Below, piece after piece: positions 17,259 through 39,659 of a DNA stretch of 64,000 bases. Location of the stretch: NCBI GenBank assembly GCA_022840825.1, contig JALHDB010000001.1, forward strand, positions 134,669 to 198,668, in the 5' to 3' direction. Positions within the stretch are counted from its first letter, which is position 1, and each line of letters opens with the position of its first letter. The notes under the pieces are model-generated. The model was not told the origin of the DNA and made no database searches. It worked only from the letters and a program-made list of their open reading frames with translations. The position numbers were made by a program, and so were the translations under genes. This stretch comes from Negativicutes bacterium. GTDB lineage: Bacteria; Bacillota; Negativicutes; JALHDB01.

Positions 17259-17435
17259 GTGCTTCACCTCCTTATGACCATTTCACCTACAATATTCTAG
17301 CATGTGAAAAAATAAAATGCAAGGATTTCCGAAAAAAGCTCGCATTTTTGGAAACAATAACTCAAAAAAGATTCAGAATAACCAGTATGTTATTTGGGAT
17401 AAGCTAGCAATAATGAAAAATGAGGAGTGATTGCC

Positions 17436-18404
17436 GTGAATTCATGGAGTACGCCGCGCACTGATTTAGCAGTTGAAGCTAAAGAATTGTTGTCCCGTCA
17501 GGTAAAAGAAGATATTCCCGGAGTATTGACCGAAACATTGCATGATGATGACGTAGTAGTAACAAGAGTGCATATTACAACCATTCAAGCCGGACAAATG
17601 ATGGGTAAAGCACCAGGTAACTATATTACGGTAGAATGTTATGGGCTGCGTTATAAAAATACACCGCTGCAAAAAAAAGTTATGAATTTGGTAGCACAAG
17701 AATTAGTAAATTTGGCAAAGCTGCCGTTGACAGCAACTGTTCTAGTTGTCGGATTGGGGAATTGGGATGTTACTCCGGATGCCTTAGGGCCAAGGGCAGT
17801 TAGCAAAATTGTAGTAACCCGCCATTTGCAAAAGATGTTGTCACCTGAGTTGCAAGGCGGTGTCAGATCAATGTGCGCTTTGGCTCCGGGAGTTCTTGGC
17901 AATACCGGCATGGAAACAGCCGAGATTATTAAGGGAGTAGTGACGGCAATTGGGCCTGATTTGGTAATAGCGGTTGATGCTTTGGCGGCGGCAACCAGTC
18001 ACCGTATGAATACGACGGTGCAATTGGCTAATTCAGGTATTCATCCGGGATCAGGAGTTGGAAATAAACGATTTGGTTTAACACAGGATTATCTGGGAGT
18101 CCCGGTTATTGCCATAGGTGTTCCTACGGTGGTGCATGCCTCAACTATTGCCATGGACACATTGGATACGTTACAAGATCATGCTGCCTTTTCACGTTAT
18201 TTTAAAAGTATGCAAAACCTTTCCGAACATGATCAGCGTACGATTGTGAGGCAGGTATTACCTGATACATTGGGTGATCTGATGGTAACGCCCAAAGAAA
18301 TAGACCGGCTGATCAATGATATGGCTGATATAGTTGCCGGTGGAATCAATCAAGCGATGCACCCCAATATCGATTACAAAAATATTCATAACTACTTGCA
18401 TTAG
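17436..18404 (+). CDS. gpr: Germination protease (spore endopeptidase)
   Basis: Full-length GPR homologue. A GTG start lies 8 nt after RBS GAGGAG. Confidence 0.85.
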   Translation: MNSWSTPRTDLAVEAKELLSRQVKEDIPGVLTETLHDDDVVVTRVHITTIQAGQMMGKAPGNYITVECYGLRYKNTPLQKKVMNLVAQELVNLAKLPLTATVLVVGLGNWDVTPDALGPRAVSKIVVTRHLQKMLSPELQGGVRSMCALAPGVLGNTGMETAEIIKGVVTAIGPDLVIAVDALAAATSHRMNTTVQLANSGIHPGSGVGNKRFGLTQDYLGVPVIAIGVPTVVHASTIAMDTLDTLQDHAAFSRYFKSMQNLSEHDQRTIVRQVLPDTLGDLMVTPKEIDRLINDMADIVAGGINQAMHPNIDYKNIHNYLH

Positions 18405-18498: not shown

Positions 18499-19497
18499 GT
18501 GAAATTGCCTAATTGGCTAAAACCGCTATTGTTTGTGGTTCCGTTTTTTGTATTTATAATCTGTGCAAGCCATACGGCAGCTATGGATAAATCTCTAATG
18601 CCTTCGATTGCTATCAAATGGAGTAATGTCCTATTTTTAGGCATACCCGGATTAGAGCAAACGAAACAAGATCCTGCTAAAAGTGAGACTTTTACTTTTA
18701 GCAGGATGAAAATACTTCGCAATATGATTTTATCGATTACCGATATTGATATTGGCAACTTAAAAACGCTGATGAGTATTGAGATAGCGGGGCTGTCAAG
18801 TACTTCGCCCGGGAAAAAGACCGTAACAGTTACGTCAGTACCAAATAAGGCTAATTTTACGATAAGAAAAATGAATTTGAGTGGTAAACCGATCGTCGGC
18901 ATTTATCATACTCATACTTCAGAGTCGTTCGTTCCTTCATCCGGTTACTCCCACCGGCGGGGGGGAAATACCGGCGATATTGTGACGGTTGGTGAGGCCG
19001 CTGTACAAAGATTTGCTACAAACGGCATTGTTGCTGTTCAGAGTAAAGCGATTCATGACTATCCGTCATTTATGAAAGCATATAGTGCATCAGAAGCTAC
19101 GATCAAAAAAATGCTGCAGGATCACTCGGCTCTGGAAATGATTTTTGACATCCACCGTGATGCGGATAAGCGGGAGAACATTACGGCGATGGTTGATAAT
19201 CAGGAAACCGCTAAAATTCTCATTGTTGTTGCGCAGGGGCAACCGGATTTACCGCAGCCTCATTGGGAAGAAAATTATGCATTTGCTCAACTGATTGATA
19301 AAAAGTTACAGCAACATTATCCGGGTGTTTCGCGGGGGATTCAATTAGTTGATTGGCGCTATAATCAGCATTTGCATCGCCGGGCGTTGCTAATTGAGGT
19401 CGGCAGTCAGGAGTCGACCACTGAAGAAGCTATTCGCAGCATTGAAATGTTTGCTGATGTTGTTTCGGAAATAATCGCAGAAGGCAGTGAATTTTAA
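18499..19497 (+). CDS. spoIIP: Stage II sporulation protein P
   Basis: The position after gpr matches B. subtilis. It has an N-terminal membrane anchor and the SpoIIP amidase-like domain. Confidence 0.85.
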   Translation: MKLPNWLKPLLFVVPFFVFIICASHTAAMDKSLMPSIAIKWSNVLFLGIPGLEQTKQDPAKSETFTFSRMKILRNMILSITDIDIGNLKTLMSIEIAGLSSTSPGKKTVTVTSVPNKANFTIRKMNLSGKPIVGIYHTHTSESFVPSSGYSHRRGGNTGDIVTVGEAAVQRFATNGIVAVQSKAIHDYPSFMKAYSASEATIKKMLQDHSALEMIFDIHRDADKRENITAMVDNQETAKILIVVAQGQPDLPQPHWEENYAFAQLIDKKLQQHYPGVSRGIQLVDWRYNQHLHRRALLIEVGSQESTTEEAIRSIEMFADVVSEIIAEGSEF

Positions 19498-19975
19498 ATT
19501 GTATAATGGTTTGAAAAAAAAGGATTTATTGATTATTGCCCGCAGTTTATCGGTGTTATTTTTGACCGCTGTTTTAGGAATCATCATTGCCGAGAGACAG
19601 ATGAATTCTTTAACCCACTGGCATAAAACGGTACAAGCATTCTCGATTACCCGTTGGTATAATGGAACATATTGCTTATGTTTATTTGGACGTCTTTATT
19701 CAATCAATGGTTTGTACATTGTTGGCAGTTTTGTTAATATGAATGACAAAATCAACTTTATTATCGGCGGAACGGAATTTGCTATGCCAATAAAACTGTA
19801 TTTTGATATAAATGTTTTACTTAACTTAATACAGGATATTTATCAATGGGTAGAACATATTATAATTGGGGTTGCTGTCAGGATGTATGAATTGGCAAGG
19901 CAGTTACGACCGTACATTAACAAATTGTCAGAATGTTGGCGGATGATAGTAGATATATTGTTCCGTTATGTGTAA
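19487..19975 (+). CDS. Questionable ORF in the yqxA position (small membrane-anchored protein, or a non-coding AT-rich spacer)
   Basis: No convincing RBS. The region is AT-rich and the C-terminal half is Trp/Cys/Arg-rich and un-protein-like. Only the N-terminal hydrophobic segment looks genuine. Confidence 0.25.
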
Positions 19976-23083: not shown

Positions 23084-23108
23084 CAACAGACAGCAGGAGG
23101 TGGAAAAT

Positions 23109-24137
23109 ATGTTAGATGAAAGAAAAAGGAAAATTCTGCAAGCTATCATTGATGATTATATTTCCACCGCGGAACCGATTGGGTCTCGCACGATTGCCAG
23201 AAAGTATAATTTAGGTATTAGTCCTGCTACAATTCGTAACGAAATGTCTGATTTGGAAATGCTTGGGTATTTGGAGCAACCACATACCTCAGCCGGTCGA
23301 ATTCCATCGGCGAGAGGGTATAGATTTTATGTCGATTGCCTATTGTCACCGGCAAAACTATCCGAAAATGATATTGCTTTAATTGAAAGTTGGTATAAGA
23401 CGAAAGTTCGGCGTATTGACGAAGTATTTCAGGAAACGGCTAAGATTTTATCCAGAGTAACTCGTAATGTATCGATCGTTTCTGCGCCACAAATGCGTCA
23501 ATGTACTTTTCGCTATATACAGTTTTTGCCGTTAGATGAAGAAAGAGTTATTGTTGTGCTGGTTTCGGACACCGGTCTAATTGAAAATAAAGTTATTAAA
23601 ATTCCGCAGGAGATCAGCTTAGAAGATTTACAGAAAATTGCTCATCGTATAAATTTGCGGTTAACAGGAATGTCCTTTGATTCTATTAAAAGCTCGCTGC
23701 TGCATGAGATAAAACGAGAGATACTCCAACAGGAAAACTTATTTGAAGCTGCGATGGAATTATTACGCGAAGCCTTAGCGATCAATTCGACTGAAAAAGT
23801 ATATCTTGGTGGTACCACTCAACTATTGGAACAACCGGAATTTAGGGATGTTGACAAGGTAAAGAGTCTGCTGGGAGTATTAGAAGAAGAAAGAGTACTA
23901 TGTGATATTCTCCAGCGCCAGAATAATCAAGGTGTATTGGTTACCATCGGTCAGGAAAATAAATTTAGCGTTATCAAAGATTGCAGTATGGTTCAAGCGA
24001 CTTATCATATCGACGGTCAGATAGTCGGTACTATTGCCGTACTGGGACCTACCAGGATGGAATACGGAAAAGTAATGGCCGTAATCGAGTTTATGAATCA
24101 ACACCTTAGTCAATTATTAAATAAGTATAAAGTGTAG
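23109..24137 (+). CDS. hrcA: Heat-inducible transcription repressor HrcA
   Basis: RBS AGGAGG then ATG. The N-terminal winged helix reads [26 protein letters not shown]. Confidence 0.92.
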
Positions 24138-24159: not shown

Positions 24160-25743
24160 ATGAGTCTTAAGCAAGCCGGCAGCGGCTCTGAAGTGGATGA
24201 GAGATTGGCTGCGCTACTTACTAATGCCAATGCGGTTAGAGCGATTACTTCTGCCGTTGAAGGAACAATCGGCCCTAAAGGCCTGGATACGATGCTTGTC
24301 GACCGGTTTGGCGAAGTTATTATCACTAACGACGGTGTTACAATTTTAGACAAAATGGATGTAAATCATCCCGCTGCGAAGATGTTAATCAATATTGCTA
24401 AGGCCCAGCAAGCAGAGGTCGGCGATGGTACAACTACAGCAACAATTATGGCCGGGAGTCTGGTAGGAGAAGGCGTAAATCAAGTAATCCGCGGTGTGCC
24501 GGTGGCTAAAGTAATTGAAGGTATAAAACACGGTATTGCTTTAGCACTTGAAGAAGTAAAAAAACACGCCCGCCAAATAGACAATATTGACGATTCGATA
24601 TTACGTAACATTGCTATGATTGCCGGTCGCGAGTATCAGGATATTGCCGATTTAGTGGTAAAGGCTGCGCAGTTAATAGGAATGGAAAAGTTGCTTGAAC
24701 CAAACTTTAAATTGTCCGATATTATAACTGCTGAAGAGGGCGCAGATAACGAAGTATTTATGGGCGTAATAATTGACCAAGAACGAATGAGTAAGGAAAT
24801 GCCGCAATCGATAACAAATGCCAAAATATTAATAATCGATGATGCTCTGGAACCGGAAGAACTCGGCGATGAAGCATTAGGTACCGAGATCGGTTTCAAA
24901 CGCTATATAGAGTTTCAAGATGAGTTTAAGGCTAACTTACATAAGATTGTAGATTTAGGCGTAAATGTAGTACTCGTTGATCGTGGCGTAGATTCCAGCG
25001 CCGAAGAGATTTTTACCGATGCCGGAATTTTAGTTGTTCAGCGTGTTTCTGCTAAAGACCTGAGGCGTGCAGCAGAGCATACCGGAGCCAGAATGATGAA
25101 ACGTACCGGACTAAAAAAAACGCCTGAAGAAATTGTTAGGTATATAGGGCAGGCTGCCCAAGTGTATGAGGATGAAAAGTTGGAACAAGTTAGGACTATT
25201 GGTGGTTTAGGCAAACCAATGGCGACAATTCTAGTTGGTGCTGCAACTGAAGAAGTAGTGGGTGAACGTGAAAGAATAGCCAAAGATGCTGCTTCCAGTG
25301 TTCAGGCTGCGGTCAAGGGTGGCTTTGTTCCCGGCGGCGGTTCGATAGAAATTGCAGTTGCCCGCCATGTACAAAAGTGCCGGGATAGTGTAAAGGGTAT
25401 GGCCGGTTATGGAGTAGAATGTGTGGTTAATGCTTTGAAACGCCCGCTGGCTCAGATTGTAGAAAATGCAGGATACAATCATTTGGAAAAAGTCGAGCAG
25501 ATTATTTCGGCACAAGCCGAGCAATCGCTTGATTCCTTAGGGATTGATTGCGATTCGGGTGAAGTCAAAGATATGCTGGATATTGGTGTGGTTGATCCGG
25601 TAAATGTGAAGGTTCATGCCATTAGGGCAGCAGGAGAAGTTGCTGTTGCAATCTTGCGTATCGATACTATTATTAAGAAAAAAGAACAAAATGCAAATAC
25701 CAAGGCTGGTGATGCCGAAAGTACTGGCTTACCAGACTTCTAA
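24160..25743 (+). CDS. Group II (thermosome/CCT-type) chaperonin, bacterial archaeal-like chaperonin
   Basis: 527 aa with the thermosome-type N-terminal equatorial motifs [26 protein letters not shown] and [14 protein letters not shown]. There is no GroEL-type N-terminus and no groES partner. The gene sits between hrcA and grpE. Confidence 0.85.
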
Positions 25744-25762: not shown

Positions 25763-26347
25763 TTGGAAGATGTAAAACAGACTACCGATGAAACAACTCT
25801 TGATGACACAGTAAATAACTGCGAACCGGAAATTGATGAAAACTCTGCGGTGTCCGCCCAAGAGGCTGCCGGTGAACAAGATAAAGAAACTGTGCAAGCA
25901 ATATTGGCTGAGCAGCAAAAGTTAGCAGATGATTTATCTAATCGGTTGATAAGATTGCAAGCTGATTTTGAAAATTTCCGGCGCAGGTCCCGCCAGGAAA
26001 AATCAGAAATGTCTACGCTGGTGACTGCCGATGTAGTTAAACAATTATTACCGGTTATCGATAATTTTGAGCGGGCGTTAAATAGTGCTGCTACGCAAGA
26101 CGTGCAGGCATTGCGCTCAGGAATTGAAATGATTTATCGGCAATTAATAAATAACTTAGAGAAGATCGGTGTGCAAACAATTCTTGCACTGGATATGCCG
26201 TTTAATCCTGAACAACATGAAGCAGTTATGCGAGCCCATGATGACAGTAAAGCTGAAGGCACTATTATCGAAGAATTACAAAAGGGATACTCGATCAACG
26301 GTAAAGTAATTCGTCCCAGTATGGTGAAAGTCGTCGCTAACTCATAA
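25763..26347 (+). CDS. grpE: Nucleotide exchange factor GrpE
   Basis: It has the characteristic coiled-coil region (LQADFENFRRRSRQE) and the C-terminal beta domain. Confidence 0.92.
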   Translation: MEDVKQTTDETTLDDTVNNCEPEIDENSAVSAQEAAGEQDKETVQAILAEQQKLADDLSNRLIRLQADFENFRRRSRQEKSEMSTLVTADVVKQLLPVIDNFERALNSAATQDVQALRSGIEMIYRQLINNLEKIGVQTILALDMPFNPEQHEAVMRAHDDSKAEGTIIEELQKGYSINGKVIRPSMVKVVANS

Positions 26348-36084: not shown

Positions 36085-36474
36085 ATGGACTGGGATTTTA
36101 TCGGGCCACTGCTTTTATTGGCAATAATATACGGATTACCGGAGTTATTTAGAAAACGGCGTAAAGGACAGCAGCAAGAATTTCCCGAGCCTGAGGAAAT
36201 CGAGGTCGTTTTACCGCCACCGGTAGAACCGCCACCCGTTATTCAGGCTAAGATTCCGCCGATTGGTATCAGCCAACAGCAACCAAGTTTTAGTGATGAA
36301 AAGCAGACAGCAGATACCAAGACCGAGGTGAGTTCGGTGGTATCCAAGCAAATGTTTATCAGCCGGCACACTATTGTAAATGGCTTGATTTTCTCCGAAA
36401 TATTGCAAAAACCAAAAGCGTTTAGATCTAATTTTGCCGGTAGTAGAACCAGACGTGGTAATGACTTAAAATAA
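36085..36474 (+). CDS. Small membrane-anchored proline-rich protein in the YqfB position
   Basis: It has an N-terminal TM followed by a basic stretch and then a PPPVEPPPV proline-rich linker. The RBS AGGTGA precedes it. Confidence 0.6.
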   Translation: MDWDFIGPLLLLAIIYGLPELFRKRRKGQQQEFPEPEEIEVVLPPPVEPPPVIQAKIPPIGISQQQPSFSDEKQTADTKTEVSSVVSKQMFISRHTIVNGLIFSEILQKPKAFRSNFAGSRTRRGNDLK

Positions 36475-36480
36475 ATAATT

Positions 36481-36520
36481 AATCAAGGGTTTTTAGAATA
36501 ATAACCCTTGATTTTTTTTT
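36481..36520 (+). terminator. Intrinsic terminator after the nfeD-floA-yqfB operon
   Basis: A perfect 10-bp stem ATCAAGGGTT / AACCCTTGAT is followed by a T9 tract. Confidence 0.85.
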
Positions 36521-36575
36521 GCGGTTTTGCGCACAATAATTAAAATCGGAATTTTTGTACAAGGAGGCGCAAGTG

Positions 36576-38060
36576 ATGACGCAATATAAGGGAAGGCTGA
36601 CATTTGCAAAAGGTACTTATGTTGAATTTGTTGTTGCGCCTAATCAAGATGTTGATTTTGGAGATATTGTGGTTGTAGAGGGAAAAAATAATGATCGCTT
36701 CTATGTTCGAACCTATGACTTTAAAGTCAAGTCTCGCTGGTCAGGGTTAAATGGTGTAAATTATTTAATGAGTAAGCTTGATGAAAATGGTCAGGTGGTA
36801 AATCAAGAAGAATTAGATTTTTATCTTGGGGGCAATCATACCGTCAAGGTAGCTATGGCTGAACAGCTTTGCTATTCAGATGGTGATGGGCATCTGTTCA
36901 ATCCCAAAACATGTCCGGATTTTTTTTGCGAAGTTAGGTCCTTAAGTACCGACGATACGTCATTGCTCAAAGAGTTAAAAGGAGATATTGAAATTGGCTA
37001 TTTAAAGACTGGCAGAAGTGTTTTGGATTTACCGGTCGGTATTTATGGTTCTAAAGCTATTACTGAACATATCGGTATATTTGGAACGACCGGCTCAGGA
37101 AAAAGTAATCTGGTAAAAGTGCTAGCCAGTTCGGTCATGGACAACGGCAACTACGGCTTATTGATTTTCGATGTTCATAATGAATATTGCGGCGACTTAG
37201 CGCAGCATACCAAGGCTGAACAATCTTTACGTGTTTATAATCCCGGTTCAGTTAGTGCTTCGGCCCAAAAGTTTTATATCAGTCCAAGTGAAATTGAGCC
37301 ACAGAATATTGTTTCTTGTGCTAACTTTACCGAACCACAGCTAGACGCTCTGTACAAAATTTCATCGGTGTGGCAAGATAGCTGGATGGAATACATGTTA
37401 AAATATGAAACCCAAGATATCATTGAAGAATTAGCCGGCTGTACCGGACAAAAATTTCAATCCCGTACGATTAGCAAGATCAAAAGTATTTGCTGGAATA
37501 TCGAGCAGGAACTTAATTTATCAGATTCGGAACAAAGTGTTCTAAGCAATATTTTGGCGGAATTAGAGCAAGGAAAGGTTGTTATCATCGAACTCAAAAA
37601 TGTTTCACCGGTAGGAGAGCAAGTGTTATCCACGCTATTATCCAAGAAATTGCTAAAGCATTATGCAAATAAGCCTAACCGCAATGACAGTCGGCCAATT
37701 TTAGTAATTTTAGAAGAAGCGCATCGATTTTTAGGCAGAAAGGAACGGGTTAGCGAAAACATATTCGCTAGATTAGTCAGTGAGGCGCGCAAATTCAATT
37801 TAGGGTTATGTGTTGTTGATCAACAGCCACGATTGCTGCATGATCAAGTGCTTTCACAACTGAATACATTGTTTATTTTAGGTTTGGCCTCTAAAGCAGA
37901 TAGGAATAAATTAGAAACTATGTGTAGAAAGGATATCCTTCAACAACGCAATGAAATAAAAAATTTAGATTGCGGAGAAATGATTGTGGCTACAAATTAT
38001 ATGAGATTTGCTGCACCGGTAAAAGTGCATAAATTTGATGATTTCTTACAGCGCAGCTAA
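36576..38060 (+). CDS. Standalone HerA/FtsK-superfamily ATPase (DUF87; N-terminal HAS-barrel-like domain + P-loop ATPase)
   Basis: RBS AAGGAGG lies 8 nt before ATG at 36576. Walker A is GIFGTTGSGKSN and the HerA-type Walker B is ILVILEEAHRFL (EEAH). About 170 aa precede the P-loop. Confidence 0.8.
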   Translation: MTQYKGRLTFAKGTYVEFVVAPNQDVDFGDIVVVEGKNNDRFYVRTYDFKVKSRWSGLNGVNYLMSKLDENGQVVNQEELDFYLGGNHTVKVAMAEQLCYSDGDGHLFNPKTCPDFFCEVRSLSTDDTSLLKELKGDIEIGYLKTGRSVLDLPVGIYGSKAITEHIGIFGTTGSGKSNLVKVLASSVMDNGNYGLLIFDVHNEYCGDLAQHTKAEQSLRVYNPGSVSASAQKFYISPSEIEPQNIVSCANFTEPQLDALYKISSVWQDSWMEYMLKYETQDIIEELAGCTGQKFQSRTISKIKSICWNIEQELNLSDSEQSVLSNILAELEQGKVVIIELKNVSPVGEQVLSTLLSKKLLKHYANKPNRNDSRPILVILEEAHRFLGRKERVSENIFARLVSEARKFNLGLCVVDQQPRLLHDQVLSQLNTLFILGLASKADRNKLETMCRKDILQQRNEIKNLDCGEMIVATNYMRFAAPVKVHKFDDFLQRS

Positions 38061-38080
38061 TTTTGAAAATAAATTTCCGT

Positions 38081-38129
38081 AATAACACAAGCCAAATACA
38101 GTCCGTTGCTTGCGTATGGACTGTATTTG
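38081..38129 (+). terminator. Perfect 24-25 bp hairpin (AATAACACAAGCCAAATACAGTCC / GGACTGTATTTGGCTTGTGTTATT, 12-nt loop) without a U tract. It is a possible factor-independent terminator or RNA structural element.
   Basis: The inverted repeat is read directly. The stem is unusually long and perfect. Confidence 0.45.
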
Positions 38130-38189
38130 GCTTGTGTTATTAGTACTCTATCACGCATACAATTATAAATAGAGTTTGGGGGGAGTGGG

Positions 38190-38465
38190 ATGCAACGAAA
38201 ACAGGATCATTTACGAAGATTGGCTGCCATACTAGAAATTCCGCAAGACATTGTATTGGATTTGCCGCGCATAACTATGTTAGGTAATCAGCAAGTTTTG
38301 ATTGAAAACCATAAAGGAATTATTGAATATACACCTTTATTAGTAAGAGTGAGCTTAAACCGGGGAGAATTGGTCATCATTGGGCAGAATATATCATTAG
38401 GCAGTTTACAGTCTGAGCAGATATTGGTAGAAGGTACCATTACCCAGCTTAATTATGATATTTGA
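38190..38465 (+). CDS. yqfC: Sporulation protein YqfC
   Basis: 91 aa with the conserved DLPRITMLGN...IENHKGI motif of YqfC. Confidence 0.9.
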   Translation: MQRKQDHLRRLAAILEIPQDIVLDLPRITMLGNQQVLIENHKGIIEYTPLLVRVSLNRGELVIIGQNISLGSLQSEQILVEGTITQLNYDI

Positions 38466-38477
38466 GGAGGATAGTTT

Positions 38478-39659
38478 ATGCTAATGCTCAATATCATAAA
38501 CTTTATAACTGGTATTGTAAAGATTCGCATAAGCGGTTTATTTCCAGAAAAATTTATTAATTTATGTATTGCCCAAAATATACTGCTGTGGAAAATTATT
38601 GAAACACAGGAATGTTTTTATGCTTACATCCGGCTGACAGATTTTTTGCAAATTCGTCCGTTGGTGCTGCGCAGCAGGGTTCGTATTAAAGTAATGGAAT
38701 ATTACGGCTTGCCGTTTATTAAAAAGAGACTTAAAAAAAGGAAAGTACTGGTAATTGGTGCGATAATTTCAGTTGTAGTGTTAAATGTATTATCTTCTTT
38801 TGTATGGTTTGTGGATGTGCAAGGGAACAAGCTTGTTTCAGATTTAGATATCAAGCAGATCGCGCAAAATAATGGTTTGAAAGTCGGTATAGCAAAATCA
38901 ACAATAACTGTTAAAAATATAGAGAATGCTATTCTTTATCACCTTCCCACAGTCGCTTGGACCAGTGTGAGTATTAATGGAACACGGGCCTTAATTGAGG
39001 TAGTGGAAAAGACTTTGCCGCCACCTCTTGAAAGCAGTCCGGCTGACCTAGTTGCAGTTAAAGATGGAGAAATAACTGAAATTGTCCTTATTTACGGCGA
39101 GCCGGTTGTAAAAGTTGGCGATAGAGTCAGCAAAGGCGATCTTTTAATCAGGCATTCGCTAGTATTAGCGGAAGCGTCAAAAAGTATAAGGGCAAAAGGT
39201 ATAATAAACGCAAAGGTAAGATATGAAGCATTAGGTGAGGCTAAGACCAAAGAAGAACAATATTTGCGAACAGGTCAAAGAAAAGTTGCGGTTGCCGTAG
39301 ATTTTAATAATCAAAAGTTATGGTTAAAAAAAGCTGATGTTAGTCAATATTCATTTTTTGAAAAGGAACAAATATGTAAAAGCTTTTCGAAGTGGAGGAA
39401 AGGAGGTTTTCCTGTCGAATTACATATTGATGTTTATCATGAATTAGAAAAAAAATGGTCACTGCAATCTTATGATCAAGCTGTTGAGAAGGCAAAGATA
39501 CAGGCGCTATCCCAAATTCAAAATATTATTCCGTTAAATGCCCAAATCTTAAAACGGGAAATTGAAGTTATGTCGGATGAAGACAATATGAATGTCAACG
39601 TAAAGGCGATAATTGAAACGATAGAAGATATTGGTCAGGATTTAGTTATTGAACAATAA
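38478..39659 (+). CDS. yqfD: Sporulation protein YqfD (stage IV)
   Basis: 393 aa with the N-terminal motif VKIRISGLFPEKFINLC, a TM segment, and its position after yqfC. Confidence 0.88.
   Translation: MLMLNIINFITGIVKIRISGLFPEKFINLCIAQNILLWKIIETQECFYAYIRLTDFLQIRPLVLRSRVRIKVMEYYGLPFIKKRLKKRKVLVIGAIISVVVLNVLSSFVWFVDVQGNKLVSDLDIKQIAQNNGLKVGIAKSTITVKNIENAILYHLPTVAWTSVSINGTRALIEVVEKTLPPPLESSPADLVAVKDGEITEIVLIYGEPVVKVGDRVSKGDLLIRHSLVLAEASKSIRAKGIINAKVRYEALGEAKTKEEQYLRTGQRKVAVAVDFNNQKLWLKKADVSQYSFFEKEQICKSFSKWRKGGFPVELHIDVYHELEKKWSLQSYDQAVEKAKIQALSQIQNIIPLNAQILKREIEVMSDEDNMNVNVKAIIETIEDIGQDLVIEQ

Follow-up and report, generated by a model that had tools for sequence, protein, structure and literature searches.

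Between the nfeD-floA-yqfB genes and the sporulation genes yqfC and yqfD of a Negativicutes bacterium (lineage JALHDB01 of GTDB) lies a herA-like gene encoding 494 amino acids, which we studied in a stretch of 64,000 nucleotides, hereafter the window (GenBank assembly GCA_022840825.1, contig JALHDB010000001.1, forward-strand positions 134,669 to 198,668). HerA ATPases are familiar as motors that work with a second component, for example NurA-HerA in end resection and Sir2- or DUF4297-HerA in defence, and the kind of protein encoded here is itself known; the novelty lies in finding together a HerA without a nuclease, extreme conservation, fixation beside a sporulation operon and confinement to a single bacterial class. 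Here, we describe the gene, its product and its orthologues, before weighing what such a motor may do in the Negativicutes, the only spore-formers with an outer membrane.

The herA locus

In the window, herA is flanked by genes for NfeD, FloA and a YqfB-like protein on one side and for YqfC, YqfD and PhoH on the other. Its surroundings had been described in a preliminary account as colinear with the yqe-yqf region of Bacillus subtilis, and this colinearity extends across the wider window, which follows the B. subtilis leuS-comE-holA-gpr-spoIIP-lepA-dnaK-...-era-recO region. The open reading frame (ORF) that contains the gene runs from 36555 to 38060 on the forward strand when counted from a TTG, and we place the start at the ATG at 36576, which gives 494 amino acids, because orthologues align from residue 1 of that product (MxxYKGRLTYAKGTY...). 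The strong ribosome-binding site noticed earlier is borne out by an AAGGAGG 8 nt before this ATG, with AAGGGGG or AAGGAGG in the equivalent position of the orthologues. The GC content of herA, at 38.3%, is like that of its neighbours and reveals no compositional anomaly, and no gene for NurA, Sir2, DUF4297, Mre11 or Rad50 was seen among the scanned ORFs of the window, in agreement with the initial view that no partner gene lies alongside. The features of the locus are as follows.

36481..36520, forward strand: hairpin followed by nine T residues, terminator of the nfeD-floA-yqfB unit (11-bp stem, 36481-36491 with 36503-36513)
36529..36539, forward strand: promoter-like (-10-like) motif GCGCACAATAA (family consensus GyrCAmAmTAA, 8-10 nt past the T-run)
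36561..36567, forward strand: Shine-Dalgarno sequence AAGGAGG, 8 nt 5' of the herA ATG
36576..38060, forward strand: herA-like gene, 494 amino acids (predicted N-terminal beta-barrel domain, RecA-like core and helical-bundle insertion)
38080..38142, forward strand: perfect hairpin between herA and yqfC (arms 38080-38104 and 38118-38142, 25 nt, 100% complementary)
38156..38163, forward strand: CATACAAT, sigma-E-type -10 of yqfC, downstream of the hairpin with 25-nt arms
38190-38465, forward strand: yqfC (YabP family, Pfam PF07873)
38478-39659, forward strand: yqfD (Pfam PF06898), which with yqfC forms the sporulation operon linked to herA

An intact HerA-family ATPase outside the named subgroups

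The product had been recognized as a standalone HerA/DUF87 ATPase with a HAS-barrel-like N-terminus, and profile, model and structure searches all agree. Pfam DUF87 (PF01935, 'Helicase HerA, central domain') matches at 108.3 bits against a gathering cut-off of 23.2 (E 7.8e-31), covering profile positions 1-219 of 220, while the match to HerA_C is marginal (22.1 bits against 22). The Walker A motif GTTGSGKSN occupies residues 170-178 (nt 37083-37109) and the Walker B motif VILEEAH, which includes the EEAH picked out at first sight, residues 377-383 (nt 37704-37724). In an alignment of 86 HerA relatives, G175, K176, E380, E381, R405 and K406 are invariant. Among solved structures, the closest in sequence is Sulfolobus HerA (PDB 4d2i; phmmer E 1e-24, residues 99-490 onto 82-466).

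An AlphaFold (AF2) model built from the 86 diverse relatives reached a predicted local distance difference test (pLDDT) of 90.2 and a predicted template-modelling (TM) score of 0.88; an earlier model on 23 close orthologues alone was poor (pLDDT 61.6). The predicted structure has the three-domain HerA fold, namely an N-terminal HAS-type beta-barrel, in a beta-rich domain of about residues 1-157, a RecA-like core and an inserted helical bundle. Foldseek aligned the model with 4d2i in the PDB at E 6.5e-32 (TM 0.73/0.78 over 501 columns), and its top 50 matches are HerA chains only, from 4d2i, Thermococcus kodakarensis HerA-NurA, Sir2-HerA, TdpAB, DUF4297-HerA and Deinococcus radiodurans HerA. 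Residues 54-88 of the barrel, suspected of being a family-specific insertion from their low pLDDT, were discounted as such, as the outgroups carry residues there too. The herA product is thus an intact and apparently active HerA-family ATPase.

It is, at the same time, no equivalog of any named HerA subgroup, nor a conjugation or secretion ATPase, the latter being an outcome that had been anticipated as a possible refutation. No curated cut-off was reached, whether for the NCBIfam HerA equivalogs (NF040937, 94.9 bits against 800; NF040819, 85.5 against 970), the antiphage HerA models (NF042943, 70.1 against 800; NF042944, 58.8 against 850) or the secretion-type models CedD (113.9 against 600), VirB4_plasma (28.3 against 590), CedB (27.1 against 700), TraC (16.3 against 567) and EssC (14.2 against 778). 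TrwB_AAD_bind matched weakly (E 0.0011), and the FtsK_SpoIIIE Pfam domain found no match in the protein at E up to 0.01.

A single orthologous group confined to yqfCD-bearing Negativicutes

A word-indexed protein search was combined with an exhaustive HMMER search of 1.84 billion representatives clustered at 50% identity. The former returned more than 120 clusters at 66-81% identity to the window protein; the latter returned a single cluster, at 878 bits, with the next match at 236 bits and no more than 37% identity. Named carriers are genera of the Sporomusaceae type (Sporomusa, Pelosinus, Propionispora, Lucifera, Anaerospora, Dendrosporobacter, Methylomusa and Selenobaculum), one cluster including Selenobaculum gbiensis (= Anaerosinus gibii), and other named sequences come from metagenome-assembled genomes (MAGs) labelled 'Negativicutes/Sporomusaceae'. 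When two peptides invariant in the family were sought in 185,579 species, each represented by one genome, 45 orthologous loci emerged, none of them in Veillonella, Selenomonas, Megasphaera or Acidaminococcus; contig look-ups brought the total to 47 non-duplicate loci, 44 of them with at least 500 nt of downstream DNA.

The median identity of HerA to the window across these loci is 73.7%, against 92.6% for RpsU, 83.2% for FloA, 69.8% for PhoH, 67.0% for YqfC, 60.7% for YbeY, 60.2% for YqfF, 42.6% for YqfD and 29.9% for YqfB, which places HerA among the most constrained proteins of the region. The herA family is therefore one tight, strongly constrained orthologous group, found only in yqfCD-bearing Negativicutes.

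herA has travelled with yqfCD

Within 500 nt downstream of herA, and on the same strand, lies yqfC in 43 of the 44 loci that have downstream DNA, followed by yqfD wherever the contig continues. Rather than being scattered beside NurA genes, which the neighbourhood check could have revealed, the orthologues thus occupy the same place upstream of yqfC. The sole exception (L036) is a 13-kb contig of a Pelosinus MAG that carries nfeD-floA-herA without yqfCD, an arrangement that may be a real rearrangement or a misassembled or chimeric MAG. On that contig (L036:2484-11013), herA is intact, at 72% identity, and is followed by genes for a nitroreductase-like protein, a DksA/YteA-like protein, a DedA-like protein and HflX.

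The upstream side is far less stable. While floA lies no more than 900 nt upstream of herA in 27 of 42 loci, and about 1.1 kb upstream in two more, the other 13 have insertions or replaced neighbours, and pairwise comparison of the upstream 3 kb distinguishes at least eight contexts 5' of herA. These include rpsU-yqeY directly 5' of herA (L013, L046); an IS21 element, a repeat array and a HAD hydrolase gene in Sporomusa ovata (L048); a radical-SAM gene and a gene for a methyl-accepting chemotaxis protein (L005); a cold-shock gene and Mg-chelatase-like genes (L074); and insertions of 1.5-4.4 kb (L023, L034). Since its insertion, then, herA has travelled with yqfCD and not with floA, which contradicts the early suggestion that the YqfB-like protein might be its partner; FloA, NfeD and YqfB were all rejected in that capacity, the upstream context not being conserved.

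Two details of these rearrangements deserve separate mention. In S. ovata DSM 2662 (L048:2431-6154), the IS21-type istA and istB genes lie directly upstream of herA, and after them come about 1.3 kb in which the peptides FQYIHVTVK and FNTSMLRSK recur in the six-frame translations, as is typical of a CRISPR-like direct-repeat array; the separation of floA and herA may there have been caused by a mobile element. In Pelosinus-type loci (L025, L029-L033, L039, L040 and L049-L051), phoH is missing between yqfD and yqfF.

Two loci preserve the order that preceded the insertion. In Desulfotomaculum varum (L071), floA-yqfB-yqfC-yqfD has nothing between yqfB and yqfC, and the same four genes follow one another without herA in a Negativicute whose YqfD clusters with that of Massilibacillus (L072:3431-7173), a genus filed under Anaerosinus in the NCBI taxonomy. 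The yqfB-yqfC spacer of L072 consists of a terminator and then CATACATA, after which comes yqfC. As the preliminary description held, the ancestral yqe-yqf order thus contains no counterpart of herA, and the two loci indicate a single insertion of the gene, into the interval that separates the terminator of the floA operon from the promoter of yqfC. Both also encode a short NfeD (174-211 amino acids), where the window has a 432-amino-acid NfeD of the NfeD1b type.

Descent from NurA-associated HerA

The contigs of the closest outgroups, at 31-37% identity, were inspected for their gene order. One, probably from Zixibacteria to judge by close NurA homologues (L067), carries NurA-HerA-Mre11-Rad50; in another (L070), the NurA gene overlaps that for HerA; in two more (L066, L069), a gene overlapping HerA on its upstream side matches NurA weakly, with Ku and LigD adjoining in L066; and an archaeal contig (L068) has HerA followed by Mre11. 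A NurA or NurA-like gene thus lies directly upstream in four of the five nearest relatives (L066, L067, L069 and L070). A more distant homologue on a Pontibacillus megaplasmid (28% identity) stands in the order NurA-HerA-metallophosphoesterase-SMC, equivalent to NurA-HerA-Mre11-Rad50. With its nearest relatives in NurA-HerA or HerA-Mre11 operons, the family derives from a HerA of the type associated with NurA in end resection.

None of NurA, Mre11 or Rad50 was found beside herA in the approximately 47 orthologous loci. A NurA profile search returned 43 proteins, those that are named coming from Zixibacteria, Euryarchaeota and Actinomycetota and none from Negativicutes, a weak negative given that the search relies on shared words and that most of the matches are unnamed. 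No family member was found in IMG/VR, in a phage collection (best match 29% identity over 23% of the query) or in a plasmid collection (best match 28% identical). We infer that herA was inserted once, anciently and without its nuclease, and was then inherited vertically. The gene is therefore an insertion, as first proposed, without being a recent island.

The floA-operon terminator and the herA promoter-like block

The hairpin upstream of herA folds at -14.1 kcal/mol (z = -3.95), with none of 200 shuffles as good. A consensus terminator scan overlooked it, probably through its limits on loops and G-C pairs, so that folding and comparative alignment were used instead. Stem sequences differ between lineages, which indicates that the hairpin is a real structure, and B. 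subtilis likewise has a terminator after yqfB (PMC3498285). It is the ancestral terminator of the floA operon; where a perfect 10-bp stem with nine T residues had been reported, the terminator and the T9 stand, while the stem is 11 bp long and belongs to the floA operon.

The 3' arm and T-run of this hairpin also form the upstream part of a conserved block 5' of herA. Whatever the upstream gene, nearly all orthologous loci show in succession a hairpin, a T-run of 7-10, a T-rich stretch of 8-10 nt and the motif GyrCAmAmTAA. In the S. ovata group, the 5' arm of the hairpin has been lost along with the upstream gene, while the 3' arm and T-run have been retained, which suggests selection on the sequence itself. 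In 841 kb of loci, the strict GyrCAmAmTAA pattern was counted 21 times 5' of herA and in a single other place, and its sole match in the window is GCGCACAATAA. From the block to the herA start codon, the distance ranges from approximately 45 to 140 nt, which fits a promoter with a variable leader.

A consensus promoter scan found no forward-strand sigma-70-type promoter upstream of herA. Scored against -10 consensus strings of B. subtilis, of the kind given in published tables, the block resembles TATAAT no better than background (0.59 against 0.56), and comes nearer to the sporulation -10 elements of sigma-G type (0.81 against 0.59), sigma-F (0.73) and sigma-E (0.71), scores that are biased by anchoring. 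By eye, it does not fit sigma-A, sigma-H, sigma-W or other extracytoplasmic-function sigma factors, a Spo0A box, SpoIIID or a LexA box. The block is thus a putative promoter that does not look sigma-A-like and is closest, imperfectly, to a sporulation-type -10.

The spacer between herA and yqfC

The perfect downstream hairpin of 24-25 bp in the preliminary description is confirmed with arms of 25 nt, and folds at -43 kcal/mol (z = -10.8). No U-tract follows it, which means that it is not a canonical intrinsic terminator; it is probably a lineage-specific 3'-end or insulating structure. Its reading as a repetitive extragenic palindrome or a miniature inverted-repeat transposable element was set aside for want of a second copy in the window, and Rfam searches of the herA flanks gave only sub-threshold miRNA-precursor matches to the long hairpin, which we take as generic hairpin noise.

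A sigma-E-type -10 lying 3' of this hairpin suggests that yqfCD has a promoter of its own, and in B. subtilis and Clostridioides difficile yqfCD is under sigma-E control (PMC3789822). Upstream of yqfC in the relatives, CATACAT(T) is conserved, usually with GTACTAA 15-16 nt before it, and this GTACTAA/CATACAT-like element is probably the form that the sigma-E promoter takes in the lineage. The herA block differs from it. Upstream of spoIIP in the window, AGTACTAGG-N14-CATATACAT resembles the GTACTAA-N15/16-CATACAT of the relatives' yqfC.

In most lineages, a terminator-like hairpin with a T-run separates herA from yqfC. A different arrangement, absent from the window, is found in Sporomusa and Methylomusa (L007:8507-8581, L003:7519-7590, L017 and L048), where the spacer is only 69-85 nt long and consists entirely of one hairpin, folding at -34 to -41 kcal/mol (z -5 to -8), which pairs the yqfC Shine-Dalgarno sequence with an upstream CCCCUUCUC and contains the sigma-E promoter. 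Transcripts that begin at this promoter would be without the 5' arm and could be translated, which would not be so for read-through from herA, and the hairpin looks like a device that permits translation of promoter-initiated yqfC transcripts only. That herA is a separate transcription unit, as originally proposed, is firmly supported by its conserved 5' block and by the terminators or anti-Shine-Dalgarno hairpins before yqfC. Presumably, HerA would be produced at a stage, or in a place, from which YqfCD has to be kept out.

The spacers of Pelosinus-type loci are long (150-304 nt) and hold extra hairpins. Those of L034 (L034:8486-8675), L035 and L038 share an imperfect palindrome of approximately 100-130 nt, GGCCGTTCAGAA.CCCCAGATGC ... 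GCAGATGGGG...AACGGCC, possibly corresponding to a structured RNA or to a mobile element of hairpin type.

Comparison with known systems

The closest comparison is with the NurA-HerA systems of end resection, namely those of Sulfolobus/Saccharolobus (4d2i), T. kodakarensis (9x1m) and D. radiodurans (7wrx/7f6d) and the bacterial NurA-HerA-Mre11-Rad50 operons. The window protein shares their three-part architecture and their size (494 amino acids against 500 for Sulfolobus HerA), keeps the Walker A and B motifs and the Arg/Lys pair, finds among them its best sequence and structure matches, and has its nearest relatives in such operons. It differs in having no adjacent NurA, Mre11 or Rad50 in about 47 loci, in an identity of no more than 37%, in its restriction to one bacterial class and its fixed place upstream of sporulation genes, and in not reaching the HerA equivalog cut-offs. 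The anti-phage modules Sir2-HerA (Nezha), DUF4297-HerA and TdpAB have the same fold and ATPase motifs (Foldseek probability 1.0, TM approximately 0.7), whereas the window family lacks an effector, lies outside any defence island, is not mobile and is strongly conserved.

SpoIIIE/FtsK, the DNA pump of sporulation from the FtsK-HerA superfamily, provides a precedent for a motor of this sort with a dedicated role in spore formation. The window HerA belongs to the same superfamily of ring translocases but not to the FtsK branch; its predicted fold is that of a plain HerA, without the FtsK membrane and gamma domains, and the N-terminal barrel and helical bundle are features peculiar to HerA. The fixation of a HerA homologue throughout one bacterial lineage also has a parallel in Thermus thermophilus HepA, which forms hexameric rings (PMC5448004; PMC9960219). 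HepA comes from another lineage, and we know of no link between it and sporulation genes.

A proposed spore-cycle motor and its alternatives

The explanation that we consider best, with a likelihood that falls a little short of even, is that herA encodes a motor that forms a homohexamer, probably translocates DNA, has no dedicated nuclease gene alongside, and acts in a process connected with the formation of spores or the upkeep of their DNA. A herA of the NurA-associated type would have been inserted once, without the nuclease, between the floA-operon terminator and the yqfCD sigma-E promoter in the ancestor of the carriers. It would be transcribed from its own conserved, non-sigma-A-like promoter, distinct from that of yqfC, with terminators, or hairpins that mask the yqfC ribosome-binding site, keeping its expression apart from that of yqfCD. 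The putative homohexamer would spend ATP to move a polymer through its pore, most likely double-stranded DNA, and would serve in the spore cycle, for example in handling or repairing the spore chromosome, the link to sporulation being the least certain step; it would probably be made in another compartment, or at another time, than YqfC and YqfD of the mother cell. A tie to the spore cycle is made plausible by the near-invariant linkage to yqfCD despite many upstream rearrangements, by the occurrence of herA only in yqfCD-bearing Negativicutes, with no match in the four genera named above, and by a promoter-like block that is not of sigma-A type.

Several observations weigh against a spore-cycle role. 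The yqe-yqf synteny across Firmicutes includes functionally unrelated genes, which makes adjacency weak evidence of joint function; the L072 lineage has yqfCD without herA, which is therefore dispensable in some yqfCD-bearing bacteria; and the Pelosinus contig has herA without yqfCD. The absence of herA from non-sporulating Negativicutes is confounded by phylogeny and genome reduction. The promoter-like block has C or A at the third position, where the sporulation consensuses have T, and shows no clear -35, and the expression of herA and yqfCD appears to be deliberately uncoupled. By homology to other HerA proteins, DNA would be the most likely substrate, and a literature search found no paper on the gene. 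A more specific version, in which herA is an unrecognized sporulation gene of diderm spore-formers with a forespore-type promoter, acting in the same late pathway as YqfC and YqfD, on the spore chromosome or docked to YqfCD, seems to us possible but unlikely.

Were the sporulation reading true, herA would encode a second motor of the FtsK/HerA superfamily in endospore formation beside SpoIIIE. A real link to sporulation would also make it a lineage-specific addition to a very stable endospore gene set and a handle on the poorly understood YqfC/YqfD step. Were the link not real, the family would still be a clean natural case of a HerA motor without a dedicated adjacent nuclease.

Much of the same evidence can be read in terms of an ordinary vegetative HerA of DNA repair or chromosome maintenance, with an unlinked partner such as a NurA-like protein or RecJ, whose place upstream of yqfCD, at the border between two operons of a very syntenic region, would be no more than a relic of history. 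All of the nearest relatives are repair genes of the NurA-HerA(-Mre11-Rad50) kind, the catalytic features of a DNA translocase and its predicted fold are intact, herA is served by a promoter of its own and shielded from yqfCD, the region is colinear across Firmicutes regardless of function and L036 retains herA without yqfCD; a partnership of this kind also finds support in D. radiodurans HerA, reported to interact with RecJ (PMC4663267). Such a repair function nevertheless strikes us as rather doubtful, as the NurA-profile search named no Negativicutes NurA (the weak negative given above), no orthologue was found in any non-sporulating Negativicute, the upstream junction has been broken at least eight times and the herA-yqfC junction once, the promoter-like block is not sigma-A-like, and a long branch (no more than 37% identity to NurA-linked HerA) followed by very strong conservation suggests a changed role. 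The opposite emphasis, on the neighbours, would make HerA a ring motor docked on a YqfCD membrane complex of diderm spore-formers, powering a step of cortex or late forespore maturation. In 43 of 44 loci, herA, yqfC and yqfD stand together unbroken, and the junctions on either side of them vary (the upstream context, and phoH, lost in Pelosinus). The family has been met only in company with yqfCD, and cortex-type defects are described for B. subtilis mutants in yqfC and yqfD (PMC3789822; 10.1101/2022.02.25.481979), neither source mentioning an ATPase partner for YqfC or YqfD. We nevertheless regard this docking as improbable: the predicted fold is that of an ordinary soluble HerA, to which no domain for membrane anchoring has been added, the herA promoter is unlike the sigma-E promoter of yqfC, yqfC would be untranslatable on herA read-through transcripts of Sporomusa, which argues against stoichiometric co-expression of HerA and YqfC, Bacilli, Clostridia and the L072 lineage have a YqfCD that functions with no HerA, and YqfD evolves fast (43% identity) against 74% for HerA.

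An anti-phage HerA, acting as a single-gene system or with an unlinked effector, is suggested by matches to the HerA models of PADLOC (E down to 7e-33) and by the presence of Sir2-HerA, DUF4297-HerA and TdpAB among the Foldseek matches. These matches reflect the common HerA fold, the antiphage NCBIfam models scoring 70 and 59 bits against 800 and 850. No effector adjoins herA in any of about 47 loci, and a single-copy gene at a fixed chromosomal position, inherited vertically with 67-81% identity across genera and without a member in the virus and plasmid collections, shows the opposite pattern to patchy, fast-evolving, island-borne defence genes, which makes a defence role very unlikely. Least credible of all, to the point that we give it hardly any weight, is an ATPase of conjugation, secretion or DNA uptake (of the VirB4/TraC, TrwB/TraD, EssC or CedB/CedD type). 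It could appeal to the weak matches to TrwB_AAD_bind (E 0.0011), VirB4-like models and CedD (114 bits), all of which score far under curated cut-offs and extend over no more than the P-loop or the generic core; no gene for a type IV or type VII secretion system, the Ced system, a pilus or a channel lies nearby, and no family member occurs on the mobile elements searched.

Other features of the window

The gene for the YqfB-like protein (129 amino acids, 36085-36474, forward strand) is the fastest-evolving of the region, with about 30% identity between genera. Its product has an N-terminal hydrophobic segment and a proline-rich middle, and is without a Pfam match at E 0.01, apart from a precomputed match to PF27722 labelled 'faint'.

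Further upstream, and on the same strand, the germination protease gene gpr occupies 17427-18404 and spoIIP 18499-19497. Directly 3' of spoIIP, an ORF of 162 amino acids (19487-19975, forward strand) has no Pfam match at E up to 0.05. In some Firmicutes, the dnaK operon has been described as containing archaeal-like chaperonins, and just upstream of dnaK the window encodes a Cpn60/TCP-1 family protein of 527 amino acids (24160-25743, forward strand; PF00118, E 3e-111), which lies between ORFs at 23100-24137 and 25763-26347 that are presumably hrcA and grpE, respectively, by colinearity with B. subtilis.

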